DNA from: a virus
Taxonomy: Duplodnaviria; Caudoviricetes
Reading direction: 5' to 3' (one strand)
Virus record (IMG/VR): IMGVR_UViG_3300020411_000002
DNA length: 64,000 nt
Shown here: positions 863 through 61,131 of the stretch, piece by piece
How positions within the stretch are numbered: the first letter of the stretch is position 1
Layout of the letters: each line of letters begins with the position of its first letter
Made by a program: the position numbers and the translations under genes
Notes under the pieces: generated by a model
What the model was told of the DNA's origin: nothing
Database searches by the model: none
What the model saw: only the letters and a program-made list of their open reading frames with translations

Positions 863-1546
863 TTAAATGTCTACAACTACTATCAGATGCTTAACTTCGC
901 CGTCCATTCGAACTGTACCAAGTTCTACATCAATGCCCGGTATCTGTTTTTCAATCTCACGTTCAAGCTCAGTAGCCCAAGAACCAAACTGACCTACTCG
1001 AAGACCGTGTTTACGTCTGTAAGAACGTAGCGTTGAAATTGCATCATAGAAATAATAAACTTCGCCCGGCAACATTTCACGCGCACGAATAAACTCAATC
1101 TTCTTCATACCATTGATACGAACATTTTTGAGTTTACGTGTTAGGTCCGTGTCTTCGCGTGGATGATTAAGCATTGTAACAGATACAGGAGTAGCACCGG
1201 CACCTTTGCTAGGATTAAGAGAGTTATCTTTATCCATTCCAGCAGGGGCGCCCCGTAAGCTGTCTTTAATAGACTTACCATCTACTTTACCACGATGCGA
1301 TTTAGACCGTTTAAGAATGTTCATTGCTTCACGTTCAGTAAGCTTGAACTTTGTATCGAGCGAGAATTCTTCTATCAGATAGTAATTGCCTCGTGGGGCA
1401 GGCATCAATCCATAAACATCACCACTAGCTAGTTCTAAATCATATTTTGGATTGTGGTCTAGAAACTTAGCAGGGCGTTTACCCATGAACTTATACCAAG
1501 CGCACTTTTTAACGTCAATTGGTTTAGCTGATAGACTAATAAGCAT
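863..1546 (-). CDS. Hypothetical virion-associated protein with S-x-S-A leader (227 aa)
   Basis: Start revised from 1684 to ATG 1546 (MLISLSAKP), immediately after the upstream stop at 1548-1550. Contains a ~65-aa domain shared with the ORFs starting at 15803 and 27315. Confidence 0.7.
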   Translation of the reverse strand: MLISLSAKPIDVKKCAWYKFMGKRPAKFLDHNPKYDLELASGDVYGLMPAPRGNYYLIEEFSLDTKFKLTEREAMNILKRSKSHRGKVDGKSIKDSLRGAPAGMDKDNSLNPSKGAGATPVSVTMLNHPREDTDLTRKLKNVRINGMKKIEFIRAREMLPGEVYYFYDAISTLRSYRRKHGLRVGQFGSWATELEREIEKQIPGIDVELGTVRMDGEVKHLIVVVDI

Positions 1547-1547
1547 A

Positions 1548-1919: not shown

Positions 1920-1963
1920 TTTTGTTCTCCAATAGGTGACGCCGTCCTTGGCATCAATTCAGT

Positions 1964-2479: not shown

Positions 2480-2492
2480 AACAAAAATCCTA

Positions 2493-4112
2493 TTAAGTGT
2501 TAGAGATAAATTCAACAGCAGCTTGTAGTTGACCTGTCTTAGGCACTACAGCATTTAAGTGAATACGCTTAGTGTATCTAGTAGGATCTAAGTACACATC
2601 GATAATCACATCCCCGTTTGCAATCGTATCGTTAGTGTTGTTACGACGATCACAAATAACTTCGTACCAGTAGACACCACGACCGCGACGAACAGGTTCA
2701 AGTAACGCTTCAAGTGTTCCACGTTGCTTATCGAATAGCAATTCATCGATAGGCTGGAATACAGCGTAGTTGTTATTGATTTTAACCGCAGCTTGAAGCA
2801 TAGCAAGCATACGAACAATACCAACATCTTGTAACGCACTCTTAACCGTGTACAGGGTATCAGCACCCCACACTAAAGTTCCTTGACCAGAAATACTACG
2901 AATAATATTAATCTGGTTTTCAACTAGTGCGTTACGATGACCTTGTTTGTAGTCTTGTGCAAGTCCAAGAATACCATTAAGATATCCATTCTGAATACCA
3001 GCAGGAGCAAACCAAGGCGCTTCGTTTTCGTCAGTACGAGCATAGACAGCAGCAACATGACCGCTTGGTGGAATCTGAACATCAACACCATTTTCAGTAT
3101 CACGAACAATTAAGTCAGGTCCGTAAAGAGCCGAAGTATAATCGTTAATATTAAGAACGTTACGGCGGTAATCAATAGCTGCCTGTGTTTCTTGAACTGC
3201 GCTAGGTAAGTCTAGGACAGCTATACAGTCTTGACGTACACCAGCAATAGTGTTCATCTTGATTTGAATTGCAGGGTCTGAGTAACCAGCGTTAATCAAA
3301 ATGTTTACGTCAATCTCTTCTGGATCAATGAACTTGTCCCATGCTTGGATGATATCACCAGTAGTAATAGCATCACCGTTAGTTCCACCTACTAACTGAC
3401 CGTTAAGCTCGTTGTTAACGTCATCACGAATACCACCACCAATAGCATTGATTAGTTGTGGCTTGTTAGTGTTAGCAAATTCTGCGTGTTGTTTGTTGAA
3501 GCGAATGCGAATACGGTTTGAACGCGCATTGACAATATCTTCAATAAACATTTGCTTTCCACCAGCATCAGTCTTACGGAAACAAGTACCGACATACTCT
3601 TCCGATGCAACCGTGTTAGTACCCTCATACACTCTGAGATAAAAACTATCGCCTGATAAATCAGCAGTGTTAGGAAAGAACTCAATCCAAAGATTGTTAT
3701 TCCATTCGCCTTCATCACGACCGTACACTAACATAATATCTTGTGCTGTTAATGTAACATCTGTGGGTTTATCGAATCCAGCAGACGGGTGACGAGTAGC
3801 AGAGTAGTTGTTATCTGTGAAAACAACTACACCACCATACTTAGCGTTACGTGCTACGCGCAAGAAGTACAAACGGTTAGCTTCTGAAAGAAAACCTTCT
3901 GCACAATAATGAGCGACACCGAAACGCGGGTCTTTCTTTCCGAATACGTTACGGAAATCTTCATTGTCAGTTACTAGTGTTGGTACACCAATAGGACCTT
4001 TCTTAGACGCACCGACCAGAGCACCAATAGAAGTAGCTTCGGCAGTAATACGTTGAGAACGGTCATTGATTTGGGTGTACACACCTGCTGACGTACTATT
4101 AGTAGCAAGCAT
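2493..4112 (-). CDS. Contractile tail sheath protein 1
   Basis: SAGVYTQIND, ALVGASKKGPIG.PTLVT, PPSGHVAAVYARTD, WFAPAG, INIIR...G..VWGA.TL, CD..NNT...IANG: T4 gp18-type sheath motifs. Confidence 0.92.
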   Translation of the reverse strand: MLATNSTSAGVYTQINDRSQRITAEATSIGALVGASKKGPIGVPTLVTDNEDFRNVFGKKDPRFGVAHYCAEGFLSEANRLYFLRVARNAKYGGVVVFTDNNYSATRHPSAGFDKPTDVTLTAQDIMLVYGRDEGEWNNNLWIEFFPNTADLSGDSFYLRVYEGTNTVASEEYVGTCFRKTDAGGKQMFIEDIVNARSNRIRIRFNKQHAEFANTNKPQLINAIGGGIRDDVNNELNGQLVGGTNGDAITTGDIIQAWDKFIDPEEIDVNILINAGYSDPAIQIKMNTIAGVRQDCIAVLDLPSAVQETQAAIDYRRNVLNINDYTSALYGPDLIVRDTENGVDVQIPPSGHVAAVYARTDENEAPWFAPAGIQNGYLNGILGLAQDYKQGHRNALVENQINIIRSISGQGTLVWGADTLYTVKSALQDVGIVRMLAMLQAAVKINNNYAVFQPIDELLFDKQRGTLEALLEPVRRGRGVYWYEVICDRRNNTNDTIANGDVIIDVYLDPTRYTKRIHLNAVVPKTGQLQAAVEFISNT

Positions 4113-4158
4113 TTATTTACTCCTATTTAACTCTAAGTCAATAGTGTTAAATTACAAA

Positions 4159-5203: not shown

Positions 5204-5218
5204 TAGCGACCTTGAAAC

Positions 5219-5269
5219 AAAAAAGCCCCATGCAAAAGCCAGAAGTTCCGACAATTGACACAGGGCTTT
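5219..5269 (-). terminator. Long imperfect hairpin with U-tract, likely intrinsic terminator
   Basis: Minus strand AAAGCCCTGTG...CATGGGGCTTT-TTT with an inner stem GTCGGA/TCTGGC, just after the stop at 5273. Confidence 0.6.
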
Positions 5270-5272
5270 ATT

Positions 5273-5665: not shown

Positions 5666-5680
5666 GCCCTATCTCCGTAG

Positions 5681-5725: not shown

Positions 5726-6808
5726 TTATACTCGTTGACCTTTTGCTACAGAGCGAACGTTTGCAAGAACGAACGAGAACGTTTCAGCAATTAACCAACC
5801 TTTGTCAGTTGCGCCTTGGTTCGCACCATCAGTAGGAGTAGAACGTACACCGCGAGTAGTGTAAACGCCGTGGTTTTCAGGAGAAGATACAACGTAGATT
5901 TCGCCTTTATCAAGAACGCGTTGGTTCTGAGCGCGGAAACCGTCAGTCATAAGTTCTAGTCCAACTAGTGTACCGATTTTACCGTTAACAACTAGGTCGA
6001 ACTTGCTTACTGGATCAAGGAATGAGCTGAACTCAGGGTTACCGATAATGTCTTTCCAGAAGTCATTAGAGATAATCGCTTTGTTAGCAGACAAGTTCCA
6101 GTCAGTAACCTGTTCTTGCATTGACGCAAGCATCTTAGGTGTAAGTTCACCAGAGATATAAGTAAGATCGTTTGCACGACCTACAGTGCGGTCAGCAGCG
6201 CGTTTCCAGATACGGTCTTCGCCAGTCATGATAGCTTCCATAGCTTGATCGCGAATGTCGCGAAGCAGGTCGCCAGATGATTGGTCAAGTTCCATTTGAG
6301 ATACGCGAACGTTTGACTTAACTTCGTATTCAGATGGACGGAACTGACGATCACGAATCAGTTGATAACCCATTTGAGTTGGTGAAGTTGAGATAACCGC
6401 TTGCACTTCGTGGCGTGGCATATAAACGTTAGGGAATTCACCTTGACGTAGAGTTTTACCAACCGCTAAGTTACGCATAAAGCCAGCGCGTGAAGCTTGC
6501 TCAGAAATTTCGTCAGCTACAGCAGCACCCAGTGCAGCCCAGTCTTCAAGAGAAGCGTTAGCTTGTGCAACTAGCTCCGCTTCTTGACGAGAGATTTCTT
6601 CTGATGGAACATGTTCTTGCTTGATTTCGCCAGAAGCCGACATGCTCATGATCGTACTAATAGCTTCTAGTAGCTCGCCTTTATCGTGCGCGTTAATTTC
6701 GCCGTTAGAAGAAAGAGCAGATAAGCCGGAACCCGGCAGTTTCAAAGCTTCGATAGGATCGCCGTTCGCCAGTACATGACGGAAGTTACGTGCGTTAGAT
6801 TTGTTCAT
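5726..6808 (-). CDS. Major capsid protein (HK97-type fold)
   Basis: 360 aa with strong SD. Follows scaffold and decoration genes and is followed by a terminator. Pattern EISEQASRAGFMR...EAIMTGEDRIW...GKIGTLVGLELMTD is consistent with a capsid protein. Confidence 0.8.
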   Translation of the reverse strand: MNKSNARNFRHVLANGDPIEALKLPGSGLSALSSNGEINAHDKGELLEAISTIMSMSASGEIKQEHVPSEEISRQEAELVAQANASLEDWAALGAAVADEISEQASRAGFMRNLAVGKTLRQGEFPNVYMPRHEVQAVISTSPTQMGYQLIRDRQFRPSEYEVKSNVRVSQMELDQSSGDLLRDIRDQAMEAIMTGEDRIWKRAADRTVGRANDLTYISGELTPKMLASMQEQVTDWNLSANKAIISNDFWKDIIGNPEFSSFLDPVSKFDLVVNGKIGTLVGLELMTDGFRAQNQRVLDKGEIYVVSSPENHGVYTTRGVRSTPTDGANQGATDKGWLIAETFSFVLANVRSVAKGQRV

Positions 6809-6849: not shown

Positions 6850-7557
6850 TTAAATAACTGATTCCAGTACTAGGAAAGCAGAAGAACTGGTTGGTGCTTC
6901 TGACACAACCCAGTTGGTTAATACGGTTCCGTCACCGCCAACAGTAAGATTACCATCAGCGCCAAGGCTTGGATGTACTGCGCTAGCCCAATCAACAGTT
7001 ACGTCGAAGTTTGAGATAGTAAGCTTAGTTGCAGTAATAACGCGACCAACGATACCCATTTCAGCAGAAGGGTTACCACCGATAGGACCTTCACCATGAA
7101 TAAGACGAGATTCAGCAACAGTAGGCTCGTAAGTAGATTGTACTTTAACTGCTTTGCCTTTGTCAGCATCGTTGAAGTAAAGAGTATCACCGTCAACAGC
7201 AACTTCACCGGCATTAGCAGGAGCAGAAGAACCAACAGACACTTTAGAAGAGTCAACAGCAGTACCGTCTAGGAAGATAGCGAAGTTGCTTTGATCAAGT
7301 TTTTGACCAGCAACAAATTTACCTTGGTCAGACACTGTGCCTTCAGTGATGAAAGGAAGCATACCAGGTGGCATTGCGCGGCTGATTGAGAAACCAGCGA
7401 AAACTTCTGAGTCATCAGCACCAGTAGAAAGACCAAGCTTAGTCTTACCGTCGTGCTTTTTGAATACAAGAGCCATACCTTCATCAGTGATAGGCTCGCC
7501 TGGAACGTAGTCACCTTCGGAAGTTTTTACGAACAAAGTATTTGCGTAATTAATCAT
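6850..7557 (-). CDS. Probable head decoration/cement protein
   Basis: 235 aa, G/A/V-rich; lies between scaffold and capsid genes with strong SD. Confidence 0.55.
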   Translation of the reverse strand: MINYANTLFVKTSEGDYVPGEPITDEGMALVFKKHDGKTKLGLSTGADDSEVFAGFSISRAMPPGMLPFITEGTVSDQGKFVAGQKLDQSNFAIFLDGTAVDSSKVSVGSSAPANAGEVAVDGDTLYFNDADKGKAVKVQSTYEPTVAESRLIHGEGPIGGNPSAEMGIVGRVITATKLTISNFDVTVDWASAVHPSLGADGNLTVGGDGTVLTNWVVSEAPTSSSAFLVLESVI

Positions 7558-9800: not shown

Positions 9801-10433
9801 TTAATCGTGAAAGAAAATAGCAGCTTTAGAACCATTTCTATCGAATACGTTTATATGGATACGTCCCGCATTTGGTAAAACGCCTTCATACGTAGTACCC
9901 GCTACACCGTCCATACGTTTAGACTTTAGATTCGATCCTATCTTAGTTAAGAGTTTTGAAACTGCATTTTTAGTTACGTTAGTACTATAACCTTTATTGC
10001 CTTGAACATCATGTCTTTTTAAAGGAGATCCTTTAATCTTATGTTCTTTCAAAAAACTATTAGCTCTTTTGTCAGAGGACTCAGATGAAGAGCTACCTCC
10101 GCTACTGTTTTCTTCAATATCAGAAAGTGCATCTTGTACCGTAGATTTATCTTTGAATATAAGATTCATGAACTTTTTAAGAGAATCTTTATCTCCATAC
10201 GTGTTCATTCTTTCTTCGTTGAAATCTGGATCGCGACCTGCGAACTCTAACTTAACACCTGCTTGATTTGCCATATCTAACAAATCTTCGGCAGTAGTTC
10301 CGTAGTCATCTTCCATGTGTGTAAGTTTGCCGTTTTTGACCGTAGCGTCTATCAAAGTTTCGTACTTATGAGAAGCATTCTTTATGTCTGCTTTTGTCGC
10401 ATAAGCTCCGCTCGATTTTTTCGGCTTACTTAC
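9801..10433 (-). CDS. Hypothetical ORF; probable -1 frameshift extension of the upstream 385-aa protein
   Basis: The ORF track starts it at TTG 10355 with no SD. The frame stays open upstream past 10433 and overlaps the A_AAA_AAG site. Confidence 0.6.
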   Translation of the reverse strand, partial: VSKPKKSSGAYATKADIKNASHKYETLIDATVKNGKLTHMEDDYGTTAEDLLDMANQAGVKLEFAGRDPDFNEERMNTYGDKDSLKKFMNLIFKDKSTVQDALSDIEENSSGGSSSSESSDKRANSFLKEHKIKGSPLKRHDVQGNKGYSTNVTKNAVSKLLTKIGSNLKSKRMDGVAGTTYEGVLPNAGRIHINVFDRNGSKAAIFFHD

Positions 10434-11587
10434 TTTTTTGCAGCAGTTTCCTTCTTAGCTGGTGCAGCTTTAGTCGCTGGTGCAGGTACGTCTTCAGGCT
10501 TCTTGTACTTAAAGCCTAAGTCTTTGATTTTATCCATTAGAGCTTTTTGCTCTTTCAAGATTTTATCTTTAGCCGCAGGAGTCTTAGCATTCGCCAAACG
10601 CGCTGTACGAGTAGCTAACTGTTTGAATAACGGATTAGCTTTCTTCATTACTTCTGGATCTTTCAGAAGCTTTGCATTACCGCCGCGTGGTGCTTTAGCT
10701 GGGGCTTTAGCAGGAGTCTTCGCTGTAGGCTTCTTACCACCTTTCTCACGAGCAGTAGCGTCTTTGATTGCGTTTTCCATTTTCTCAACGTATTCAGGAC
10801 GCAACTTACGATTCATCGCTTTAGCTTTCATCTTGAAGAACTTGAATTCTTCTTTTAGATCTTCACTGCCACGTTTATGTGCGTTAGCGCCTGGGCGACG
10901 GAAGTTACTTGGAGTCTTTGGTACACCCGGAGAGTTAGGACCTAACTTCTTACCAGCAGGTGCTTTAGCTGGGGTCTTACCAGTTTGCTTTGGATCTTTG
11001 TTTGCATTCTTATCGCCGCCAGTGATTACACTAAAGATACGACGAGCAGACATACGCGGACCGAGATACTGACGAGTAAGACGACCACCATTTGCAGGCT
11101 GCTTAAATACATGCCAACCTGGGGCAATCATGTTTGGTGCGCGTTTCTTACGACCCATTTGAACACCAGCACCTTGACCGCCAGTACCTTTCTTAGGTTG
11201 TGCAGAAAGCATTTCAAGAGTACCCATATCGATAACGGTATCTTCCATTGCTTCTGCTTCGATAGAAAGATCCATTTCGTCTTCATGATAATCTTCTGTA
11301 CCGTAGAACGGAGTTGAAGAAATAGATTCCATATCACGCAATGCAAAAATCTTTTGCTTCATTGAAGGCATGTACTTAACTTCTTTTGCAACGCGAAGTA
11401 GTACAATAGTTTCTTTCTTGGTTTTAAGAACGTAACGCCCAGGCTGCTTGTGTACAATACGCGGAGCAGGACGAATTTGCTTTAAAGCATCTTGTAAAGT
11501 CTTTGGAACTTCAACAGCCTTTTTGGCAGGTTTTTTACCACCAGCACGAGGTGCGCTTAGAGATTCAAACGTAATATTAATAGACAT
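10430..11587 (-). CDS. Lys/Ala/Pro-rich (histone H1-like) basic protein with S-x-S-A leader
   Basis: Starts MSINITFESLSAP; contains KTPAKAPA repeats and ends PAPATKAAPAKKETAAKK. Confidence 0.75.
   Translation of the reverse strand: MSINITFESLSAPRAGGKKPAKKAVEVPKTLQDALKQIRPAPRIVHKQPGRYVLKTKKETIVLLRVAKEVKYMPSMKQKIFALRDMESISSTPFYGTEDYHEDEMDLSIEAEAMEDTVIDMGTLEMLSAQPKKGTGGQGAGVQMGRKKRAPNMIAPGWHVFKQPANGGRLTRQYLGPRMSARRIFSVITGGDKNANKDPKQTGKTPAKAPAGKKLGPNSPGVPKTPSNFRRPGANAHKRGSEDLKEEFKFFKMKAKAMNRKLRPEYVEKMENAIKDATAREKGGKKPTAKTPAKAPAKAPRGGNAKLLKDPEVMKKANPLFKQLATRTARLANAKTPAAKDKILKEQKALMDKIKDLGFKYKKPEDVPAPATKAAPAKKETAAKK
10433..10439 (-). promoter_or_regulatory. Candidate programmed -1 ribosomal frameshift heptamer A_AAA_AAG
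   Basis: Reads GCA AAA AAG TAA at the gene end, with AAGGA 9 nt upstream and an open -1 frame downstream. Confidence 0.65.
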
Positions 11588-11613: not shown

Positions 11614-11654
11614 TAAAATTAGAACTATCTGTTTTCTAAACTAGGTTAAAATTA
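11614..11654 (-). promoter_or_regulatory. Two TAATTTTA motifs upstream of the 385-aa gene
   Basis: TAAAATTA on the plus strand at 11614-11621 and 11647-11654. Confidence 0.3.
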
Positions 11655-12182
11655 ACCAAATCGCGTTCCAACAAATTTACCATTCCTATAAAGAGGTTTA
11701 GAAGCTTTTGGATCAAGCATACCAAGCTGAAATTCTTTGGTAGCATATTCACCACCACCAGGAGCGTGGTAATCTAAAAGGAATTTAAGAACGTTATCCT
11801 TTGAGCCGTGTACAGAAATCACCGAATCGCCACCAGGACCATAACCTGAATCCCAATTCTCAAAGCGGAAACTTACTTTGAATTTGTTAAATATGTCTAA
11901 CTGCTCTTCAAGTTCAATCAATGCGCTATCGTAAGCTTCTTGGTCATCAGCAGAATCAGGCAAAGTTATAGGTCTAGCTACTTTAAACTGTGAGCCCGTA
12001 AGATTTTCTATTGCAGATAACACATCGCCTATTGGCTGCACAACTAAGATAGTAGAATGGGCTTCACCTCCAGCAGTACCTGTATTACCAATTAGCTTTT
12101 GTGCTTGTGCAAGTTTACGTGCAACTCTCTTATAAGTGGAAGATCTTGCGCTAATGCTAGACAAGTTGATTGTTATATTCAT
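11652..12182 (-). CDS. Hypothetical protein with S-x-S-A leader
   Basis: Starts MNITINLSSISARSS. Confidence 0.7.
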   Translation of the reverse strand: MNITINLSSISARSSTYKRVARKLAQAQKLIGNTGTAGGEAHSTILVVQPIGDVLSAIENLTGSQFKVARPITLPDSADDQEAYDSALIELEEQLDIFNKFKVSFRFENWDSGYGPGGDSVISVHGSKDNVLKFLLDYHAPGGGEYATKEFQLGMLDPKASKPLYRNGKFVGTRFG

Positions 12183-14849: not shown

Positions 14850-15803
14850 TTAAACTGAGTCATAACTTCCTGTATAGTTTCCGTCTTTTAGATAACGATT
14901 AACAAAATATTTCTCAGCTATCTCCCATCCGATAGGAGTACTAAATCCACGAGCGCTTCTACCATGTACCATCGCTTCACAGAGAATAGCAAAGGCTTCG
15001 TCCCACCACGGATATGAATAACCCGGATGATTGAATTGGTCTTTGTGTAACTTCTTAGCCGCAATCTGACGTTTGAACATAATAAGGTCACTGTTTCTAA
15101 CTACGTTCTTTAACGCATAGTGAGCTAGTTCGTGAGTAAGTACTTGGGCAAGAAGTTCGACTGTAATTGAACCAAACAAACGTTGAAGCTGAGGTGGATC
15201 AATTACTATATAGATATCTTTGTTAGCTTTAGTTCGGTCTGTTTGAGTAACAATACTTGTACCAAAGTTAGGACCGACAGCTATCTTAATAGGAAACTTG
15301 AAAGGGATGCGCGTTCCCAAATAACCTAACGACTTCTCAACCATATCGTACATGGAATCAGAAGGTGGCATTACTGAACTACGTAAAGACGGAAACATTT
15401 TAGGTTTATCCAGTCTAACGAAGTTCACAGGTTGAGACCCTGGAATTTTTCCATGAGCTTTGTCTGGGTCTTCTCTTTTTATCTTAACGACAGCAGGCTT
15501 TAAATCAGGTACAGAATCCAATTCAGAGAAAGAATCTTTGAACGTAGACTTACCGGGCTTAACACTTCTACCGTCAATCTTACCCATATAAGGCTTGCTG
15601 TTTTCAACCATCATTTCAGCATCTTTCTCAGAGATAGGAACGAATGTATTCATATCTTGAGTTATTACTAGGCTGCCTTTATTTGGTGCAATGCAATACA
15701 CTGCACGAGTTGGAATCGTAACTTTAGAATTAGGTCCGTCAAATTCCATCGGCGAACCTAAATGTCTAAACCACGAACCGACAGATAGTACGTCAATCTT
15801 CAT
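14850..15803 (-). CDS. Zincin-type metallopeptidase (HExxH) fused to a shared N-terminal domain
   Basis: VLTHELAHY plus downstream DEAFA (candidate third ligand Glu). Confidence 0.65.
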   Translation of the reverse strand: MKIDVLSVGSWFRHLGSPMEFDGPNSKVTIPTRAVYCIAPNKGSLVITQDMNTFVPISEKDAEMMVENSKPYMGKIDGRSVKPGKSTFKDSFSELDSVPDLKPAVVKIKREDPDKAHGKIPGSQPVNFVRLDKPKMFPSLRSSVMPPSDSMYDMVEKSLGYLGTRIPFKFPIKIAVGPNFGTSIVTQTDRTKANKDIYIVIDPPQLQRLFGSITVELLAQVLTHELAHYALKNVVRNSDLIMFKRQIAAKKLHKDQFNHPGYSYPWWDEAFAILCEAMVHGRSARGFSTPIGWEIAEKYFVNRYLKDGNYTGSYDSV

Positions 15804-15815: not shown

Positions 15816-16427
15816 CTATATATAATCCACATAAGCGCCATTTCCAGTTTGAGAGCTATATACTCTTGCAACTTGTTCAGCTTGTTTCTTAGTGCCTGGG
15901 TACTGCATAAGCTTAGTACCGTTATGATTATACGCCATGTAACCGGAAGTTCTTTTCACTACGTTTTCTTCTCGCATGAAGTCAAGAGAGTCAAGGTCAT
16001 TAGAATCTGGTTCTCTTTTTCTAGAAATTCTATCAACTCGTTCTCTTCTAATAGAACGAAGAGTTTCAATATCTTTTGGCGGTTGTTTTTTACCTGTAGA
16101 AGAATTTGTCTGATAACCTTTAAGCGGCTTAATAAGCTTCAATGCTGCAATGATTGTAGGAAACTGTTTAGCAACTGACAGCTTTTTAACAGCGCTCTTC
16201 ACGTTAATGCTGGCTTTAGCATTGGCAAACTTTTCTACGCGCTCAGGATCAGCAGATTTTAAGAATCCTAAGAGCGCATCGAGACCTGCAGTATCTACAA
16301 GCTTTTCTTTGCTGTAAGTTTCAAGAATAGGAATTACTTTCTTTGCGCTCTTGCCGAAAAGTATTTCAGCGTTTGCCATTTGTTTTTTAGTAGCAGATTC
16401 GCTACGAATGTTTAAGTTAATTTTCAT
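15816..16427 (-). CDS. Hypothetical basic protein with S-x-S-A leader
   Basis: Starts MKINLNIRSESATKK; AGGA SD. Confidence 0.7.
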   Translation of the reverse strand: MKINLNIRSESATKKQMANAEILFGKSAKKVIPILETYSKEKLVDTAGLDALLGFLKSADPERVEKFANAKASINVKSAVKKLSVAKQFPTIIAALKLIKPLKGYQTNSSTGKKQPPKDIETLRSIRRERVDRISRKREPDSNDLDSLDFMREENVVKRTSGYMAYNHNGTKLMQYPGTKKQAEQVARVYSSQTGNGAYVDYI

Positions 16428-16495: not shown

Positions 16496-16930
16496 TTAGG
16501 CAAATTTCTTTAGCTTAGCATTGATTGCTTTCAAATCTCTTTTTGCATCACCGCTAGGTTTGATATCGATAGTCTCATCCCCACCTCGCATTATATTGTA
16601 AGCTACGATAGAGATTAAGTACCCATCAGAGCGAGGAAGAGAATAGTTGGCATCGCGTACATCAGACTTTTCAGGATAGCTAGAAATAGTTACAGAATAA
16701 TTACCTACCGTTTTAGCCAAGTAGTTAGCTTCTTCAAAGTCCCAACCATCCTTTAATAGAGATTGAGTAAGTTCAGGTAATTTACTCACTGGAAGAGAAT
16801 TCCCGGTCGGTCTGTTAGGACTGTACGCTCTGTCGTAAGTATACGTGCCATTATACATTGTACCTCGTGCGTCTTCTGAATAGCCTTTAGAGGTTGCAGA
16901 CATTGATTGTAAATTGATAGTAAGTTGCAT
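16496..16930 (-). CDS. Hypothetical protein with S-x-S-A leader
   Basis: Starts MQLTINLQSMSATSK; AGGA SD. Confidence 0.7.
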   Translation of the reverse strand: MQLTINLQSMSATSKGYSEDARGTMYNGTYTYDRAYSPNRPTGNSLPVSKLPELTQSLLKDGWDFEEANYLAKTVGNYSVTISSYPEKSDVRDANYSLPRSDGYLISIVAYNIMRGGDETIDIKPSGDAKRDLKAINAKLKKFA

Positions 16931-20436: not shown

Positions 20437-20898
20437 TTAACTCAACATTGAAATAACGTTTCGTAAAATTTCAGCTTCGGGTATCTTGTACTTTTCAGAT
20501 ACTTGAGCTAAAGACTGAGTAAGCTTTTCTTTCACTTCATTAGAGGCAAGAGAAAGGTCTTTCTTTCGTTCACGATCTAAAGCTTTGTTCGTATTTTTGA
20601 TAAACGTAGGTGCTAGTGAGTTTAACACTCTTTCTATATCACCGATTTCAAGTTTACCGATATTGTACTCTTCGCGAAAAGCTACTATGTCTCGGTTGTT
20701 GCCTTTGATCATATTCTTAGTAAAAGTAATAATCTCTTCTGGCTTTAGCTTGGAAGTAGCTGTAATTTCAGATATCTCACCTAGAGCCTTCTTTGCGGCA
20801 TGAATGTTTCCATCAATAGCACTTTTTGCAAATTTTATTACATTTTTGATTAGCACACTAGAGCTTGCTAAAGAGGTTAAAGGTACACTTACTTTCAT
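20437..20898 (-). CDS. Hypothetical protein (153 aa)
   Basis: Start revised to ATG 20898 (ATGA overlap with the glycosyltransferase stop); starts MKVSVPLTSLASSS. Confidence 0.65.
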   Translation of the reverse strand: MKVSVPLTSLASSSVLIKNVIKFAKSAIDGNIHAAKKALGEISEITATSKLKPEEIITFTKNMIKGNNRDIVAFREEYNIGKLEIGDIERVLNSLAPTFIKNTNKALDRERKKDLSLASNEVKEKLTQSLAQVSEKYKIPEAEILRNVISMLS

Positions 20899-25533: not shown

Positions 25534-27315
25534 TTAACTCGTTATCGGTTCGTTAGATTTGTCGTAGTTTTCTATATTGTTAAAGTACTTAGTAAACTCT
25601 TTTGGATTAAGCTTACGTACAAAGTCGGCTTCTTTCTCAATAGACTGATTAGTCTTCGAGCTAATACGAACTGTTTGATATTCCATTGGGTCATTAGTAA
25701 TGTCGTAGACCTTGTATACCGTAATAGAATCGTTTTTCTTTAGAGGGTAGATATCAAGAATTAGATATTCGCGTTGTTCAGTCTTGTCTTCCTTAAACTG
25801 AATTACATCGCCTTCCTCATACGCTTTAGTCTCTTCGACGTCCTCAACAGACTCGGGGTCTTCATCCTCTTCTGCGAGTTCAACATCTTCGTCTTCATCA
25901 TACGATTCTTGCTCAATGTCATCCAGATCGACAGGCTCTTCGCTTTCATCCTCTTCAATCTCTTCGACTTCTTCTGTATCTTCCTGTACTTCATCATCGG
26001 GATCGTCCTCTATCTCGGTTTCTTCTTCCGACTCTTCAAGCTCAGATTCTTCTTCGATATCTGGATCTTCTTCATCGTCTGGAAGTTCTTCATCTTCGTC
26101 CTCAAAATCGGCTTCTTCTTCCTCGTCTTCATCTTCTTCCATAGATTGAGAAAGTTCTTCTCGCATATCACCTATTTCAGAATCAAGACTTTGACCTATA
26201 GCATCAGAGTCTGCATCGACAGAAACAATTTCGTCTTCATCGATTATATCATCGCCTTCTAGGTCAATGTTATCAATGTCATCAAGATCATCAAAGTCAA
26301 AATCACCGTCATCATCGGCTGCCATGTCGTCTAAGTCTGCAACAACTTTCTCTTTGTCTTGCATTCGCTTAGAAGATTCTTCAATGACAATATCGTCCAT
26401 GTCTTTTACAGGCGCATAAATTGAAGGTGCAACATCTTGCATACCAGCCAAACGTAAAGCCTCTTTACGAGCCTTTTCTTGCTTCTCTAGTTTCTTGCGC
26501 TGTATTTCTTCAAGACGTTTTTGTTTGGCTTCTCGCTTAGCCTCTTTGATTTTTTCACGAGCTTCTTTTTCTTTTAGAGCTTTGGAAATCTCTCTATCTT
26601 TTTTAAGTCTCTTTATCTCGTCCAATGTAACTTTTCCTTTAAGCCATCTGTTTAGCGGCAGTAAAGGTGAATTCTCTACTAGATAGTCATACTTGTCTGT
26701 AGGAATCGCCCAGCTAGTACCATCAGGAAAAGCAATAACACCGCCACGACTTTCCTTTAAAAATCGAAGACCAAACACTTGGCCTTTTTCCATTTCAAAG
26801 AACTTGTCTAGTGTTTTGCTGTACTTAAACTTTGGAACGTTAAGCTTTCGCCACTGGTAGTTTTGAAAGAACACACCGTGCTTACTTTCTGGTACTGGTC
26901 TAGAAGCATTGCGCGTTGGATAGTATCTATCTGCGGCGGTATCATAGACACGAGTATTCGGATTTTCAATAGGCCGTCTAGGTGCGCGTGGAGAAGAATT
27001 CTTGTTTCCTCTCCCTGCTCTAACGTCTTCTATTTTTGGTGCTTTACGTTTGTGAGATCGTTTAACTAGGTTAACTAGGTCATTCTCTGATATTGGATAA
27101 GCTACATAATACTTATCAGGAAAGATTAAGTAAGCGCGATTGCCACGAATAGGTTTAATACCAAATACAGCTTTAGGTGGAATAGAGATATCAAAGTTTC
27201 CCGATTCCATCTTTTTGGTTCTTAGACCTTTATACGTGTACCAATTGTATTGCGGTAAATCAGAATACTTTACTGCTACGCTTACGGATTCTAATTCATT
27301 TATATTCTCAAACAT
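25534..27315 (-). CDS. Hypothetical protein: two shared domains, K/E coiled coil, ~170-aa D/E tract, C-terminal globular domain
   Basis: Starts MFENINELESVSVAV; composition read from the translation. Confidence 0.7.
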   Translation of the reverse strand: MFENINELESVSVAVKYSDLPQYNWYTYKGLRTKKMESGNFDISIPPKAVFGIKPIRGNRAYLIFPDKYYVAYPISENDLVNLVKRSHKRKAPKIEDVRAGRGNKNSSPRAPRRPIENPNTRVYDTAADRYYPTRNASRPVPESKHGVFFQNYQWRKLNVPKFKYSKTLDKFFEMEKGQVFGLRFLKESRGGVIAFPDGTSWAIPTDKYDYLVENSPLLPLNRWLKGKVTLDEIKRLKKDREISKALKEKEAREKIKEAKREAKQKRLEEIQRKKLEKQEKARKEALRLAGMQDVAPSIYAPVKDMDDIVIEESSKRMQDKEKVVADLDDMAADDDGDFDFDDLDDIDNIDLEGDDIIDEDEIVSVDADSDAIGQSLDSEIGDMREELSQSMEEDEDEEEEADFEDEDEELPDDEEDPDIEEESELEESEEETEIEDDPDDEVQEDTEEVEEIEEDESEEPVDLDDIEQESYDEDEDVELAEEDEDPESVEDVEETKAYEEGDVIQFKEDKTEQREYLILDIYPLKKNDSITVYKVYDITNDPMEYQTVRISSKTNQSIEKEADFVRKLNPKEFTKYFNNIENYDKSNEPITS

Positions 27316-32632: not shown

Positions 32633-32644
32633 TGTAGTCTCCTA

Positions 32645-33844: not shown

Positions 33845-33859
33845 GTTTATTCTCCAAAA

Positions 33860-35877: not shown

Positions 35878-35890
35878 CTAAGTTCTCCTG

Positions 35891-55315: not shown

Positions 55316-55344
55316 AGTGACTCCTGTTAAGAGAAAGCAAGGGA

Positions 55345-58300
55345 TTAATTCCCTTGCAGTTCTCGATTGTGTTCTCTGGTACGAACAGGTTTAAGTTGAG
55401 CTAAGTCTTTTGCAAGTTCTTCCATGTTAGTAATGGTATAACCTGCTTTACGTAAATCACGAATCTTAGCTTTCGCGTTAGTTCTGTTCACAGCAAAGAA
55501 GACCGCCATGCCTGGGTGAAGTTTCCACTTACCAAATTTACCAGCGCCCGGCATTGTTTTACCAATGTGCTTTTGCATTAACGGGTTAGTTTTCATATCC
55601 ACTGTTAGACGTAAACGATCATCTAAGATAGCTGGATAGATTTTGATAACTTTTCTGTTCTGAGACTGACGGTGTCTAGTACGGAAGAAGTTAGGTAAGT
55701 CTGCTTGTACCTTAACAGCTAATTGAAGATTGAAACCTAAAGTACGAGTTTCTTCTTCAAACGCGTCCATTACAGCACCAAGACGGTTTGCACTAGGCTG
55801 ATCATATCCGATGTTATCTTCAATGTAGTCTAGAGCTTTTTCGAAGTGCATATAACGCTGGAACTCACAGTAAGCAAATTCACCAAACGGTGCAAAACCT
55901 AGACTCTTCAAGTCTGCCGCATCTGGGTCATCAGCGTTAACGTGAAGCGCAAGGAAACCATTATAGACAGAAGCAATAACTTCGATGTTCATATCTTTAA
56001 TTGGCTTACCTGAATCATCAACAGTCTGTACTTTACCAGTGTTATCTTTAGGTAGTTCAGAAACTTTGGTAATTCCTGCATTAACAGGACGACCTTCTTT
56101 GATGTTCTCTTCACGTTTCTTCTTCTTCTCGTCCAAGCGGTCTTGCTGCTTACGTTTCTTCTCGATTTCTCGATTACGTGCAGCTTCTTGCTCACGACGG
56201 GCATCTTCGGCTTGCTTAGCTTTACGTGCTTCGCGTTCAATACGCTTACGTTCAGTTTCAGTAGCCCAAGGCTTATTGGTTTTGAAGAATCTGTCTAAAT
56301 CTGCTTGTGATACTTTGGCAGCAACAAACACTTTACGACTATCAACTTTACCCAATTCATCGTTTGCGTTGTAACGAATCTGTAGAACAGAAACAGGCTG
56401 ACGCGGGTCAATAACTTTCTTACCATCACGCATAATAAAGTTTTTAGACCAACCTACTACAGTACCTGTACCAAACTCAGTACGAACAGGAAGACCACGA
56501 ATCAGTTTAGTAACGTCTTGCTCTGTTACATTAAGAAGAGCTTCTATATTGTTATCGAAGTTCTTCTCCGTCCACTGACCGTACCATGATGGAAAATCGA
56601 TTAGACCAAAACCGTCTGGATCAGGAATCTTCTGGTTCGCTAAGATAGGCACATTGTCTATTCTAGCAAAGTCTTCTTCGATAGGTACAATAGGTAAGTT
56701 CTGCATCGTTGCCAATGTAGTCTTACGCATTTCGTGGAACTCTTGACCCTCAATAGCATTAAGCTTAGCTTTAGCTTCGAAGTGTTCCCAAAAACCAGCA
56801 ATGCCCTCAGTAGCCGCTTTGATGAGAGTAGGAATGTTCATCTTGATTGGGTCAAGAGTCATTTCCATAATCGCATCGTAACGTGGGTTACCTTTTTCAT
56901 CGAACTTGGTTTTGTCTATTGTCTTCCACATCAAACGTGCAATCTTGGCAACCTCTAGTGAACTCTTAGTGATTAACCAATCGATGTAGATAACTTCTCG
57001 ACGCATATCCCCAGGCTTACCATCTACAATCTTAGCAGCAGACGGGTCAGGTCGGAAGATACGTGCAGTAGACTGTTCGTAGTCACCTGGCGACCAAGGC
57101 GTTTCAACACGAATAATACGTGAAGCCATTTGCATGTTGTGCCCTTCTGAAATTGCTTGTTCGTTAGCAATCAGAATACGCACTTCTGGGTCGTTCTTAA
57201 AGTCTTCGATTTGTTGCCACTTGTCATCTAACTGACCGTGGAATCTTCGAGCCATACCTTTGTAACGCTCTGGTAAAGCTGCATAGATAGCATCGGTACT
57301 ACGAGTATAACGACAGAAGATAAGAACCTTACCATGCATTTCCTCTTTCCAGTTTTCTGTATCTTCTGTAGGAGGAATTACGCTAGCTGGTGTTTCACGA
57401 CGTTTCAACGATACTTCATCTGTCTCTAGACGACGGCGCATGAATCGACGCTTTTCATATTCAACAACATCAAGCTCACGCACTTTCATGCCCGGCTCCC
57501 AATGTTGAATAACAGCAGTTGCATTATAATCGCCTGAATACTTATCAACTTTGAAGTGTCTGTCTAGACGTTCAACAACGGCACGAACCTTTGGTGTCTG
57601 ATAATCACTTGGAACGTTAGCAGCTTTAGCCGCATCTTGGAAAGCTTCATCACCCCAAGGGTCAGTAAGAATCTGTTCCAATCGTTGCATGTGACCGTCA
57701 AACTTCATCGGGTCAATCATTGCCAATTCGTCATCTTCATCAAAATCTAAATCGACAGTATCGTTGTCTTCGCTATCTTCGGTCTTTTTCTTTTTAGACG
57801 CGTTACTGATAGCAGCATTCAGTTCGTCAAACGTTTGCTCTAACAGAGCCATGTAGGTCTTAAAGAAAACCTCGTTGTATGGGTCTTTATCGTCATCCAA
57901 TTCAATCTCTAAGAAAGAGTCAATTGGATTCGGAAGCATGAAGGCCCATTCTTTACGCTTAACAGTAATAACCGCTGCGTGTTGACCTAACTTACTACGA
58001 ACACGAACAGCACCATCAGGTTCATCGGCATCGATAGCAAAGTCATCTGGTGTACGGAAGATGTGAGAAGAGAACAAAGCACTTTGTCCTACAGCATCTT
58101 TTAGTAGACCGTGAATGAATGTACCAGTAAGCAAACGAGTGTATAAAACCCCAGGCATTGTAAATATTTGTTTAACAGTAGAGTGTACTGCCGACACGTT
58201 ACCTGCTGCTGGGTCAAATGTTTTTGCTTTATGTGATTCATCAAGAGCCACATAGTTAAAGCCAAGACGTTTAATAAACTCAGTACCACCGTAAAGCTTC

Positions 58301-61131
58301 AACTTCTGAGGGCCGTAAGAAATATCTTGCGCACCATTCTTTAAGAAGTGAATACCAGTAAAGAACATAGTGTTACGAGGAGCGTTACGGACAAGCTCTT
58401 CTAAACGTTCCATGCCCCAAGTTTCGAAAGACTCTTTGGTAATAGGAACAGCATTCCATGTACCTTTAGTAATCTTTGCCAAGTCTTCACACCAGTTAGC
58501 ACATAGTCTATCAGGTGAGATAATGATAGGCTTAATAGGTTCACCAGCTTCTGCTGCCATAGAACCAATATCTAACAATAGCGTAATAGTTTTACCACCA
58601 CCTGGGTGTATATCTAGAAGCGCGTGTTTTGGCTTACGGCGTAAATACTTGTGAGCTTTAATTTGGTGAGGGAATACTTGACTGCCCTCAGCAATGCCCG
58701 GCATACGAATATCTTCAACGTCAATCGATTCATCAGGCTGATACGACTCTGCTTCTTCTTCCGCTTGTCTAAAGATATCTACCGCGTTAGGTACATACTT
58801 TGAATACATAAACGCAAGAGGCATGATAACACGACTAACTGTAGTAAATGGTAATGAATAGCCACCTATAATTGGGTTAAACTCTTGAAGAGGCTTAGTT
58901 AAAAGCTTAACGTCTGCTTTGGTAATCGCTTCACATGCTTTCTTAAATACAAGACCACCTAAGTAGTTGTACAAGTTACCAAACTCATACATCGAACTAG
59001 ACTGCGGGTGGAAGTAAGCGTTATGGTCACGAGCTTCTGTGTGAGCGTTATCGATACCAACTTCATCAACAAGAATCTTGTATAGGTTAGTACCCGGCGT
59101 TGCAGTAGCATCACGCATTGCATCTAGAAGAAGAACATAGATAACGTTAGCTTCTGAGTTTTCATCTTTAACTAACAGATTGCCGCGTTCATCTAGATAC
59201 TTACTATATAAAGTACGGTCTAGAGGTGAACTAGACAGGTCTGTAAGGTCTAGCTCTTGCATAGCTTCTTTTATGATGACCTGCAAGTCACGCATAGCAT
59301 TCTTACGTGATAAGAATACCATAGTCTGTAGCAAGTTTTTAAATTGCTTAGAGTAGACGAAAGAAAACAGACTAGAGATATCCCGACCGTCATAGATAGA
59401 CGTAGCCTTTAATTCTTTTTCGCCAACCATTTCTGCAAAGTCAGTTCCAGGCACCATGTAGTTAAGAGTTTCTAAAAACGTCTTAGCTTGACGGCGTTCG
59501 CCTTCTTCTGAGAAATCGTAACCAAGGTAATCAGAAATAGCCAGTGCGCTTGGTGTAGTAGTACCATTCATATCGGTTGATAACTGAGTGAATGGGCTAC
59601 CAGTACCAGTAGTAAGAAAAACATTGTAGTCCCAGTTAAACGCGATTAGTGAACCACGAAAACGAGAAAGTTCTTCTTTACTGCTACGAACAGACTTTTC
59701 GATATTTGGGTCTTGCTTTGCTACTGCGAATGCTTTACTTAGAAGCGTTTTGCTTTCAGTAAGAGGAGCACCTGCTGCGTATGAGGCACGCAATGCATCT
59801 TCCATCTTAGCTTCGTATTCTGCCGCGTTATCTAAATCAACGTCATCAGCACGAGGCATAAAGCTAAGAAGTCCACGAGGGGACACACAAATACGATCTT
59901 CGTTTACACGACCTGGGTCTTGTGGATAGCCGTTCTCTTCGCGGTGCTTAATAAGAATGCTGTTCTTAGAAGCTGGAACAATGTAACGAGGAATCTTGTT
60001 CCATTGCGCACCATGAGTAGCAGAACCTTTAGTACGCATATATACGCGTGACCATTGCGTAACCCAAGTACTTAACGCGTAGTAGTTAAGTGAGCCGTCT
60101 GTAGTTTGAGAAATATAGTCAACAAACTCTTTAGGCATGTGGATAGAGTACGAAACAGAAAACTTCGAAAGTTTAGCAGCTTCGCGAGTAACCAAGTCTT
60201 CGTTTATAGGTGCTTTAGGCTCCAAGTACGAATCAGGGTTTTCTTGCTTGTACGCGTATTCACCAGCGTAAGAAGCATACTCTTCCGCAATAGTTCTATC
60301 AGGCGCAATCATAATCAAGAATGAGTACGTATCATTCATTACTGGGTTATTAGGAATTGAATCAAAGATATCAATTGAGAAACCCATGTTGCGGGCAAAC
60401 ACCTGATTCAACATCTTAAAGTCGAAGTCTACTGGAATAGAAGCCTGCTTCCATTCGTGAGCATTTGAAACATCAGACGCCTTACCAAAGATCATTTGGT
60501 GAATTTCATCCATTGTCTTCAAAGCATTTTGCGCGACTTCACTTTCATAGTGCTGCAAGCGAGTTGTTTCGTATGTGCCATTCTTAGGGTTAGACATAGG
60601 CTTAACATCGTACTGATCGATGTAGCTAGTAAAACCAGAAGAAACTGCACTAGTGTAGTTAGGAGTACCGACAAACTTAATGTCTTTACCGCCTTTATAT
60701 TTCTTACTTTCTTCAATGATGTGGTATTGACCGCTACCAATAGTAGCAAGGAATCCTTTAATGAATTCGTCTTTAACTTTTGGCAAGTCTGTTACTGACT
60801 TAATCATTGATAAGCGACTTAGAAAAGCCGACTGTAAGTCTTCTGGTGAATAGTCTTCAAGGACTCCACCGTTAGTTACAGCGTAAGCAAGAAGACGCTG
60901 TAAGTTGTTAAACATTATAGAGATATCAATAGCGTTAATAGCTAACTGCGGAATCTCACGGCCTTTTACCTGCTCAGTTTTCTTAGAAGCAAAGAAGCGC
61001 TGTTCAAAGCGGTCGTTGTCTTTTTCAGAAAGTTTAACAGGTGCTAGGTCATCGACTAGTGAGTCGAATGAACCACTTAGACTCTGTAACGTGTGAGAGA
61101 CTACAGTACTCACCTTAGATTCTACGAGCAT
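55345..61131 (-). CDS. Very large SNF2-family helicase/ATPase (1928 aa)
   Basis: QIFPHQ-type Q motif (VFPHQ), HPGGGKT, LDESH, LLTGT, VLIFCRY, EGHNMQ.A..IIRVE.PW.PGDYEQS.AR. Confidence 0.85.
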   Translation of the reverse strand: MLVESKVSTVVSHTLQSLSGSFDSLVDDLAPVKLSEKDNDRFEQRFFASKKTEQVKGREIPQLAINAIDISIMFNNLQRLLAYAVTNGGVLEDYSPEDLQSAFLSRLSMIKSVTDLPKVKDEFIKGFLATIGSGQYHIIEESKKYKGGKDIKFVGTPNYTSAVSSGFTSYIDQYDVKPMSNPKNGTYETTRLQHYESEVAQNALKTMDEIHQMIFGKASDVSNAHEWKQASIPVDFDFKMLNQVFARNMGFSIDIFDSIPNNPVMNDTYSFLIMIAPDRTIAEEYASYAGEYAYKQENPDSYLEPKAPINEDLVTREAAKLSKFSVSYSIHMPKEFVDYISQTTDGSLNYYALSTWVTQWSRVYMRTKGSATHGAQWNKIPRYIVPASKNSILIKHREENGYPQDPGRVNEDRICVSPRGLLSFMPRADDVDLDNAAEYEAKMEDALRASYAAGAPLTESKTLLSKAFAVAKQDPNIEKSVRSSKEELSRFRGSLIAFNWDYNVFLTTGTGSPFTQLSTDMNGTTTPSALAISDYLGYDFSEEGERRQAKTFLETLNYMVPGTDFAEMVGEKELKATSIYDGRDISSLFSFVYSKQFKNLLQTMVFLSRKNAMRDLQVIIKEAMQELDLTDLSSSPLDRTLYSKYLDERGNLLVKDENSEANVIYVLLLDAMRDATATPGTNLYKILVDEVGIDNAHTEARDHNAYFHPQSSSMYEFGNLYNYLGGLVFKKACEAITKADVKLLTKPLQEFNPIIGGYSLPFTTVSRVIMPLAFMYSKYVPNAVDIFRQAEEEAESYQPDESIDVEDIRMPGIAEGSQVFPHQIKAHKYLRRKPKHALLDIHPGGGKTITLLLDIGSMAAEAGEPIKPIIISPDRLCANWCEDLAKITKGTWNAVPITKESFETWGMERLEELVRNAPRNTMFFTGIHFLKNGAQDISYGPQKLKLYGGTEFIKRLGFNYVALDESHKAKTFDPAAGNVSAVHSTVKQIFTMPGVLYTRLLTGTFIHGLLKDAVGQSALFSSHIFRTPDDFAIDADEPDGAVRVRSKLGQHAAVITVKRKEWAFMLPNPIDSFLEIELDDDKDPYNEVFFKTYMALLEQTFDELNAAISNASKKKKTEDSEDNDTVDLDFDEDDELAMIDPMKFDGHMQRLEQILTDPWGDEAFQDAAKAANVPSDYQTPKVRAVVERLDRHFKVDKYSGDYNATAVIQHWEPGMKVRELDVVEYEKRRFMRRRLETDEVSLKRRETPASVIPPTEDTENWKEEMHGKVLIFCRYTRSTDAIYAALPERYKGMARRFHGQLDDKWQQIEDFKNDPEVRILIANEQAISEGHNMQMASRIIRVETPWSPGDYEQSTARIFRPDPSAAKIVDGKPGDMRREVIYIDWLITKSSLEVAKIARLMWKTIDKTKFDEKGNPRYDAIMEMTLDPIKMNIPTLIKAATEGIAGFWEHFEAKAKLNAIEGQEFHEMRKTTLATMQNLPIVPIEEDFARIDNVPILANQKIPDPDGFGLIDFPSWYGQWTEKNFDNNIEALLNVTEQDVTKLIRGLPVRTEFGTGTVVGWSKNFIMRDGKKVIDPRQPVSVLQIRYNANDELGKVDSRKVFVAAKVSQADLDRFFKTNKPWATETERKRIEREARKAKQAEDARREQEAARNREIEKKRKQQDRLDEKKKKREENIKEGRPVNAGITKVSELPKDNTGKVQTVDDSGKPIKDMNIEVIASVYNGFLALHVNADDPDAADLKSLGFAPFGEFAYCEFQRYMHFEKALDYIEDNIGYDQPSANRLGAVMDAFEEETRTLGFNLQLAVKVQADLPNFFRTRHRQSQNRKVIKIYPAILDDRLRLTVDMKTNPLMQKHIGKTMPGAGKFGKWKLHPGMAVFFAVNRTNAKAKIRDLRKAGYTITNMEELAKDLAQLKPVRTREHNRELQGN

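Follow-up and report, generated by a model that had tools for sequence, protein, structure and literature searches.

The stretch of DNA analysed here, 64,000 nucleotides of the IMG/VR virus record IMGVR_UViG_3300020411_000002 and referred to as the window, comes from an uncultured jumbo myovirus, of whose genome it represents the structural and replication part, and all of its long open reading frames (ORFs) lie on the minus strand. Ten of its genes and one weak case (20437..20898) encode proteins that start with a common leader of 6-19 residues, in which hydrophobic residues alternate and which ends in phi-x-S-x-S, phi being a hydrophobic residue. Counted back from the putative cut at the end of the leader, P5 is hydrophobic and both P3 and P1 are serine. 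The leader is a real and conserved feature. Its carriers are listed in Table 1 together with the head and protease genes that bear on their interpretation; further annotated genes of the window encode tail tube and tail sheath paralogues, an NAD-dependent ligase, a glycosyltransferase, a family A DNA polymerase, a clamp, and helicases. The nearest deposited relative is Phage NCTB (258 kb, surface water), whose protease is 78% identical to that of the window. More distant relatives, with a protease identity of 44-49%, are Pseudomonas phage PaBG, Dickeya phages JA11 and AD1, and Erwinia phages Y3 and Alexandra. The group to which the window phage belongs has been named the "Lupandier" group (PMC7412058).

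Table 1. Leader-bearing genes, head and protease genes, and putative processing sites in the window (an arrow marks the putative cut).
Feature	Coordinates	Strand	Leader or site	Domain, profile, or position
KMPT-N domain protein, 227 aa (small)	863..1546	-	MLISLS↓ (1529-1546)	Pfam KMPT-N, E 3.5e-11
Basic protein, 385 aa, mature isoelectric point 10.3	10430..11587	-	MSINITFESLS↓ (11555-11587)	
Protein, 176 aa	11652..12182	-	MNITINLSSIS↓ (12150-12182)	
DarA_C-domain protein, 158 aa	12191..12667	-	MEIFISLS↓ (12644-12667)	Pfam DarA_C, E 1.4e-8
Type IB topoisomerase, 573 aa	12667..14388	-	MLISLS↓ (14371-14388)	Pfam Topoisom_I, E 3.9e-16
Basic protein, 203 aa	15816..16427	-	MKINLNIRSES↓ (16395-16427)	
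Protein, 144 aa	16496..16930	-	MQLTINLQSMS↓ (16898-16930)	
Protein, 472 aa	19016..20434	-	MDYGITSLS↓ (20408-20434)	
KMPT-N domain protein, 593 aa (large)	25534..27315	-	MFENINELESVS↓ (27280-27315)	Pfam KMPT-N, E 1.4e-12
Helicase-like protein, 1928 aa	55345..61131	-	19 residues, end HTLQSLS↓ (61075-61131)	phrog_21391, E 0; Pfam Helicase_C
Weak candidate, 153 aa	20437..20898	-	start MKVSVPLTSLASSS; fits phi-x-S-x-S	
Leaderless paralogue, 317 aa	14850..15803	-		KMPT-N-like N-terminal domain, then HExxH (HELAH) zincin motif
Head-maturation (prohead) serine protease, 266 aa	17574..18374	-		phrog_18299, E 5.6e-91; inside leader-gene cluster
Putative protease self-cleavage site	18312-18326		F-M-S-S-S↓F	residues 17-22
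Scaffold-like protein, 656 aa	7589..9559	-		just upstream of capsid genes
Head protein, 235 aa, leaderless	6850..7557	-		phrog_16710, E 2.7e-54; orthologue of PaBG virion gp81
Major capsid protein, 360 aa	5726..6808	-		phrog_2522, E 1.7e-94; profile begins at residue 31
Capsid candidate maturation site 1	6710-6724		L-S-A-L-S↓S	after S33
Capsid candidate maturation site 2	6638-6652		I-M-S-M-S↓A	after S57

The pattern phi-x-S-x-S was found within the first 20 residues of 11 of the 61 window genes, compared to 1.5 expected from its internal density (P ~3e-7, for a regular expression picked after inspection of the data). With a position-specific scoring matrix (PSSM) trained on the leaders of relatives only, five N-termini in the window scored at least 9 bits (0.09 expected) and 11 scored at least 6 bits (2.2 expected). 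Applied genome-wide, the same regular expression gave 30 N-termini in Y3 compared to 7.0 expected (P 5e-11) and 18 in NCTB compared to 7.7 (P 9e-4). The genome-wide enrichment of a two-residue pattern was not decisive because the leader genes are a small minority. When the leaders were stripped and the proteins compared all-versus-all by BLASTP, the sole link was that of 863-1546 with 25534-27315 via their common KMPT-N domain, leaving one related pair among the ten carriers. The serine codons of the leaders are mixed, TCN as well as AGY. That the leaders of unrelated carriers end in the same motif written in different serine codons indicates that selection acts on the peptide. On these points the original prediction, made from the sequence without database searches, was borne out: all N-termini that it had cited were found on the minus strand at the coordinates given, preceded in every case by a ribosome-binding site of the AGGA type, and the codons that it quoted were correct. 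It had likewise stated that the carriers are unrelated and that core replication and tail genes lack the leader; the polymerase, clamp, helicase, and tail genes are indeed leaderless. A TAGGAAA(T/C) box recurs 7-10 nt before the start of many late genes (e.g. at 315, 12182, 15803, 16427, 16930, and 27315) and is probably the preferred Shine-Dalgarno context of the phage.

The membership of the set had to be revised in places. The start MKVLMTLSG (36331, gene 35891-36331), previously listed as a weaker case, is not conserved, the NCTB orthologue starting with MRVVVTGG, and the tail sheath start MLATNSTS (2493-4112) is a chance match that reads MLLPDHPS in JA11 and MLQPNHPS in Y3. The SNF2-like protein starting at 61131 had rightly been included but rated as a weak case; it is a strong one, with L-x-S-L-S kept in NCTB and PaBG. 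The start at 20898 stays weak, as it had been rated, and 31585 was added as a further weak candidate. The gene 14850-15803 was rejected as a member, its start MKIDVLSVGS being unconserved.

In orthologues from NCTB, an IMG/VR relative, Y3, JA11, and PaBG, the motif is preserved while the sequence and the length of the leader vary. Across them, phi-x-[SA]-x-[SA] is retained, the leader measures 5 to 16 residues, and the distance from the motif to the mature domain is fixed. Alanine was found in place of serine, and the rule is therefore small-x-small, in which P3 and P1 are either Ser or Ala and P5 is hydrophobic, instead of the Ser-specific code that had been proposed. The type IB topoisomerase starts with MLISLS↓R in the window, MLVSLS↓K in L001, MLITLS↓R in NCTB, and MHTSLS↓A in PaBG. 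The DarA_C protein starts with MEIFISLS↓A in the window, MKLLISLS↓N in L001, MLISIS↓L in NCTB, and MQIFVSLS↓S in Y3; the Y3 counterpart is a probable one, recognized by its like leader and an FY-G-L motif and giving no BLASTP match. For the small KMPT-N protein the leaders are MLISLS↓A, MLILLAAS, MLFFVSVS↓A (JA11), and MLIFLSES↓A (Y3). Those of the large KMPT-N protein have 12, 14, 5, 6, and 7 residues with the ends ESVS, LSIS, SQS, SES, and AEA (MDTRMLKLNLLSIS↓A in NCTB, MLSQS↓A in JA11, MVLSES↓A in Y3, and MLMIAEA↓K in PaBG), and the putative cut lies at a near-constant distance from a conserved W-[YF] motif. Orthologues of the 472-residue protein start with MTLISLS↓AQESNWWKK in L001 and MSLININVSQELVSLS↓NQEADWWKR in NCTB; their leaders differ in length and agree at their ends, and the mature part is alignable from the putative cut on. 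The leaders of the helicase-like protein end in ...GLESLS↓A in NCTB and read MGSLFTLNSLS↓A in PaBG. The chance matches, namely the tail sheath, 35891-36331, and 14850-15803, show no such conservation.

Other carriers are restricted to fewer genomes. For the basic protein 15816..16427, the Y3 homologues carry ...VASTS↓A and ...VESTS↓A, and no homologue was detected by BLASTP in NCTB or PaBG. By the same method, neither 11652..12182 nor 16496..16930 had a match in NCTB, Y3, or PaBG, and no orthologue of 20437..20898 was present in these three phages, yet all of these genes carry the tag. Since even lineage-specific genes are tagged, the tag behaves like a portable module carried by genes that turn over quickly. 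For five of the cargo proteins no function emerged from relaxed Pfam scans, and a search of the ESM Atlas with 19016-20434 was without match; the DarA_C match passes the Pfam cutoff, and does so in 12191-12667 only. In NCTB, leader genes also occur outside the protease island (9071-9514, 135748-136281, and 140836-141207), among them a gene for an FHA-domain protein starting with MNILISLS↓S. In Y3, six leader genes form a second cluster at 161268-174802 (161-175 kb). The topoisomerase orthologue of the IMG/VR relative G001 (C1:25761-27434) contains one in-frame TGA.

The leader of the basic protein 10430..11587 is identical in the close relative L053, where it stands on a single ORF of 540 residues, and the NCTB paralogues of this protein start with MKIISIS↓A and MKIVSIS↓A. 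The window gene ends in ...GCA AAA AAG TAA, so that a -1 slippery heptamer, A AAA AAG (10433-10439, minus strand), abuts the stop codon. The -1 frame is open from 10454 and continues into ORF 9801-10355, and the last 92 residues of the -1 frame and this ORF are 64% identical to the C-terminus of a single 591-residue leader protein of NCTB; in the 540-residue ORF of L053 the C-terminal module differs. We see three possible explanations for the junction between 10430-11587 and 9801-10355: programmed frameshifting, a genuine split of the gene, or an assembly error in a homopolymer.

The island of leader genes also holds the gene for the head-maturation protease. Its AlphaFold2 model (predicted local distance difference test score 87.5) had as its best solved fold in VIA-align gp21 of phage T4 (5jbl; Z 11.4 over 150 residues, root-mean-square deviation 3.0), followed by the assemblins of varicella-zoster virus (VZV; Z 6.3) and human cytomegalovirus (HCMV; Z 5.4). 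VIA-align was needed, the gp21 match by plain Foldseek against the PDB being weak (E 0.01); a phmmer search of PDB sequences gave no match, and the Pfam models assigned no family to the protease or to the capsid protein. Residues H131 and S188 are invariant in 74 homologues. Near its N-terminus, the protease carries a putative self-cleavage site of the same type as the leader ends: its six closest relatives show no variation at S19, S21, and F22 (SSS↓F, SKS↓F, SES↓F, and SRS↓F), and most of the nearest homologues in protease alignment A4 have S-x-S-F as well. Distant homologues in this alignment (P0049, P0053, P0062, P0073, and others) have no N-terminal S-x-S-F, and many of them read Y-A-D-[AC], also small-x-small, which may be a different self-cleavage code in that protease subfamily. 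In the 20-kb context of two such distant proteases starting with ...Y-A-D-[AC], L051 and L052, no obvious set of shared leaders was found. The NCTB orthologue of the protease (L003 20007-20789, BN7874_230) is labelled 'Phage endolysin' in GenBank and that of JA33 'protease/endolysin', which looks like a propagated mis-annotation.

The same motif recurs in the head proteins. The capsid protein has two candidate maturation sites, of which site 1 is small-x-small in all six relatives, and site 2 only in the NCTB-like ones and PaBG. The scaffold-like protein has two modules of the zinc-ribbon type, a polyacidic tract, and a C-terminal domain that is conserved, with phi-x-[SA]-x-[SA] sites in between. 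The motif is retained by at least four of five relatives at seven columns of its alignment, compared to 0.68 in column shuffles, none of 500 of which reached seven. Ser and Ala interchange in these columns (e.g. S-L-S, A-L-A, A-V-A, and A-L-S), and six of the 30 best internal PSSM matches in the window fall into this protein. At the level of sequence, the motif of the leader ends thus also marks the capsid N-terminus, residues 17-21 of the protease, and the seven scaffold columns. These putative sites in capsid protein, scaffold, and protease are the substrate set expected of a prohead protease.

Two findings tie the leader to virions of PaBG. PaBG 148541-154450, the orthologue of the helicase-like protein, has a computed mass of 221,159 Da and corresponds to virion band 1, gp202, of 221,162 Da (PMC7412058, Table 1); it starts with MGSLFTLNSLS↓A. 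Virion protein gp83 (35.1 kDa) corresponds by gene order to PaBG 54998-55960, which starts with MLIKINLLEAVA↓A. Since gp202 and gp83 were both identified in the virion, two non-tail virion proteins of PaBG carry the leader. Proteolysis of several PaBG virion proteins has also been reported (PMC7412058). The leaderless head protein 6850..7557 matches PaBG 52226-52843 by tblastn, in agreement with the gene order 76-83 (PMC7412058, Table 1). The domains DarA_C and KMPT-N belong to families tied to proteins that are packaged and delivered with phage DNA (PMC5512222).

Taken together, we consider it probable that the leader is a capsid-targeting propeptide, comparable to the capsid-targeting sequence (CTS) of T4, which is cut by the gp21-fold prohead protease at a site with small P3 and P1 residues instead of Glu at P1. 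That the motif is shared by the capsid protein, the scaffold, and the protease indicates that the tag most likely serves head loading and is then removed. These patterns lead us to infer the bond that is cut, a role in targeting, and ejection. The leader would be an extended strand of 6-19 residues with hydrophobic residues at alternate positions (P7, P5), followed by small ones (P3 and P1, Ser and sometimes Ala). Serine protease substrates bind as extended strands in which P1, P3, P5, and P7 face one way, a mode of binding that would fit the alternating pattern of the leader. The leader would bring its protein into a prohead core that holds the zinc-ribbon/polyacidic scaffold-like protein and the protease. 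Once the shell is complete, the gp21-fold serine protease would cleave after P1; it would also trim its own N-terminus (S-x-S↓F), remove the capsid N-terminus, and cut the scaffold at several conserved sites. The trimmed cargo would remain in the head with the DNA and probably be ejected into the host. As cargo we propose the type IB topoisomerase, the DarA_C-like protein, the two KMPT-N proteins, the 1928-residue helicase, and several small basic proteins. Of the T4-CTS-like address-and-processing tag originally proposed, the core idea stands, given the conservation of the leader, its presence on lineage-specific genes, the gp21-fold protease, the sites in head proteins, and the PaBG virion proteins; its Ser-specificity and two of its members were lost.

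Several observations weigh against this interpretation. In PaBG, the regular expression was only marginally enriched (10 N-termini compared to 5.7 expected, P 0.06), and the PSSM and regular expression are weak there because Ala often stands for Ser. Some carriers are not part of the head module, 863-1546 being located between tail-tube genes and 55345-61131 beside replication genes. When the PaBG capsid protein matures, its mass decreases by ~20% (PMC7412058), compared to the 9-16% that the candidate cuts after residue 33 or 57 would remove. The PaBG study was limited to 14 identified gel bands and defined neither N-termini nor a motif (PMC7412058). A complex prediction for the protease and the first 40 residues of the DarA_C cargo scored 0.01, which weighs neither way. 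Finally, the island encodes a second peptidase, the HExxH zincin 14850..15803. Its KMPT-N-like domain was recognized when it was compared with the KMPT-N family in hhalign (84% probability, E 7.7e-6), and a SprT-like match was weak (E 0.095). The protein starts with MK-IDV where the putative mature 863-1546 protein, translated from the ATG at 1546, reads AKPIDV; as it starts exactly at that putative mature start, it is a natural leaderless counterpart and in this respect supports the propeptide model.

Some of this evidence could be read in other ways. The leader might have only half of the proposed function, being either an uncleaved assembly or docking strand or a propeptide removed by the protease without any targeting, e.g. 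one that keeps enzymes inactive. Nothing in our analysis separates targeting from cleavage, the packaging signal of phage P1 DarB is not reported as cleaved (PMC9024508), and phage SPN3US packages 42 head proteins uncleaved (PMC10052503). The motif at internal scaffold sites and at the N-termini of capsid protein and protease, however, favours cleavage, and its presence on ten unrelated proteins and on lineage-specific genes favours an address function; we regard such a partial function as unlikely. More improbable still is that the leaders are cut by the zincin and not by the gp21-like protease. The zincin is a rival candidate for the processing enzyme by its HELAH motif, its KMPT-N-like N-terminal domain, and its location in the island, and a homologue directly follows the protease gene in JA11 and Y3. 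Metallopeptidases of polyvalent proteins have been proposed to process delivered proteins (Iyer et al., PMC5512222). In contrast, the motif is found on classic prohead-protease substrates (capsid, scaffold, and protease) and is invariant at the N-terminus of the serine protease, and KMPT-N occurs on only two of the leader proteins.

Removal by a host enzyme, either a Prp-like protease or signal peptidase I, appears hardly credible. Prp of Firmicutes cuts a leader of the L27 type, ...LNLQFF↓A, from the capsid and scaffold proteins of the staphylococcal phage 80alpha, and signal peptidase I follows an A-x-A rule. The format is superficially alike: the 80alpha leader is a short N-terminal strand of alternating hydrophobic residues removed before Ala or Ser, and small residues at -3 and -1 are common to the signal peptidase rule. 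Yet Prp is a host cysteine protease that acts on a Phe-Phe motif in Firmicutes only, whereas the leaders in the window are without Phe-Phe, the window phage encodes a likely protease of its own, itself carrying the motif, and its relatives infect Proteobacteria, with Pseudomonas, Erwinia, and Dickeya as hosts of the cultured ones. Neither Prp nor the L27 extension is known from these hosts. A Sec signal peptide needs a positive n-region and an h-region of ~10 or more residues, whereas the leaders, at 6-19 residues and down to MLISLS, have neither. The remaining view, that the motif has no function and arose by chance, by paralogy, or from biased codons or translation initiation at 5' ends, is very improbable as well. 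AT-rich early codons (MKI, MNI) are frequent at gene starts, and two members have a domain in common. Against this stand the excess of N-termini (11 compared to 1.5), its replication in two further genomes, the mixed serine codons, the S-x-S that is kept where orthologous leaders otherwise differ, and the lack of conservation of chance matches such as the tail sheath.

Further features were observed among the tail genes of the window. There are two full-length tail sheath paralogues (2493-4112 and 42441-44084) and two tail tube paralogues (322-849 and 1964-2475); the arrangement of the small KMPT-N leader gene between the two tube genes is kept in NCTB, JA11, Y3, and L006. The interval 31592-37362 holds a tandem array of five paralogous genes for short sheath-like proteins (phrog_12249, E ~1e-90), which have in common an N-terminus of the type MGFSVE(K/R)NN...NGF; the small ORF 35891-36331 breaks up this array, and NCTB has an equivalent one. 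A common N-terminal module of ~210 residues (phrog_13325) is found in 38178-40691, 41048-41773, and 41786-42430, and in the first of these, the largest of the three, it precedes a tail-protein body.

If the capsid-targeting propeptide is confirmed, it would represent a third cleavage code for prohead proteases of the gp21 family, beside L/I-x-E and S/A/G-x-E, and one similar to the code of the herpesvirus proteases that share this fold. The head-carried and probably injected proteome of these phages would become readable from sequence, providing a list of candidate early anti-defence effectors (topoisomerase IB, DarA-like, KMPT-N, and giant helicase proteins, and fast-evolving small basic proteins). 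The very short tag would also be reusable as a protein-packaging handle, like the T4 CTS and the P1 DarB signal. With PaBG, Y3, and JA11, cultured relatives are at hand that make the leader model directly testable. We see about equal grounds for and against a broader claim: that in a clade of PaBG/NCTB/Y3-like jumbo myoviruses the gp21-fold protease has shifted from Glu to Ser/Ala at P1 and P3, as in the herpesvirus assemblins, and that a six-residue tag (M-L-I-S-L-S) is enough to bring any protein, even a 220-kDa helicase or a type IB topoisomerase, into the head for ejection. In a literature search, we found no paper describing a Ser-x-Ser leader code.

Among known systems, the CTS of T4, found on IPI, IPII, IPIII, and Alt and cut by gp21, is likewise a short N-terminal tag (~10 residues) on unrelated internal head proteins. 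It also ends in a protease motif by which T4 processes its capsid protein, scaffold core, and protease alike, and the window protease has the gp21 fold (Z 11.4). In contrast to the T4 cut after Glu (L/I-x-E), P1 of the leaders described here is Ser or Ala throughout, with a hydrophobic P5. The window protease is also missed by Pfam models, and a type IB topoisomerase and a 1928-residue helicase are among the proposed cargo. The phiKZ gp175 and SPN3US gp245 proteases likewise belong to jumbo myoviruses and cut many head and ejection proteins at a P3/P1 motif with a small P3 (A/S/G) (PMC10052503). Their P1 is Glu ([S/A/G]-x-E), which is absent from P1 of the window leaders, and their propeptides are mostly long (111-254 residues, only two of ~20; PMC10052503), compared to 6-19 and mostly 6-12 residues in the window. 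The Dar system of phage P1 (DarA, DarB, Hdf, and DdrA/B) brings antirestriction-type proteins, one of them a giant protein with a helicase, into the head via an N-terminal signal of <30 residues (PMC9024508), and a predicted DarA_C domain is present in 12191-12667. However, phage P1 cleaves its capsid protein behind Glu (E120↓S121), its protease is HK97 gp4-like, the DarB signal is longer and apparently unshared, and no common short motif has been described across Dar proteins.

Closest in cleavage preference are the herpesvirus assemblins, which belong to the same fold superfamily (VZV Z 6.3, HCMV Z 5.4) and have a small uncharged P1 and a small P1'. They cut (V/L/I)-x-A↓S. These enzymes of eukaryotic viruses act on the scaffold and on themselves rather than on tagged cargo enzymes, and P1 in the window is usually Ser and P1' usually Ala. 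Judged from the putative sites, the P1/P1' preference in the window, Ser or Ala before Ala, Ser, or Thr, is nevertheless closer to the assemblin rule than to the Glu codes of the other phage proteases.

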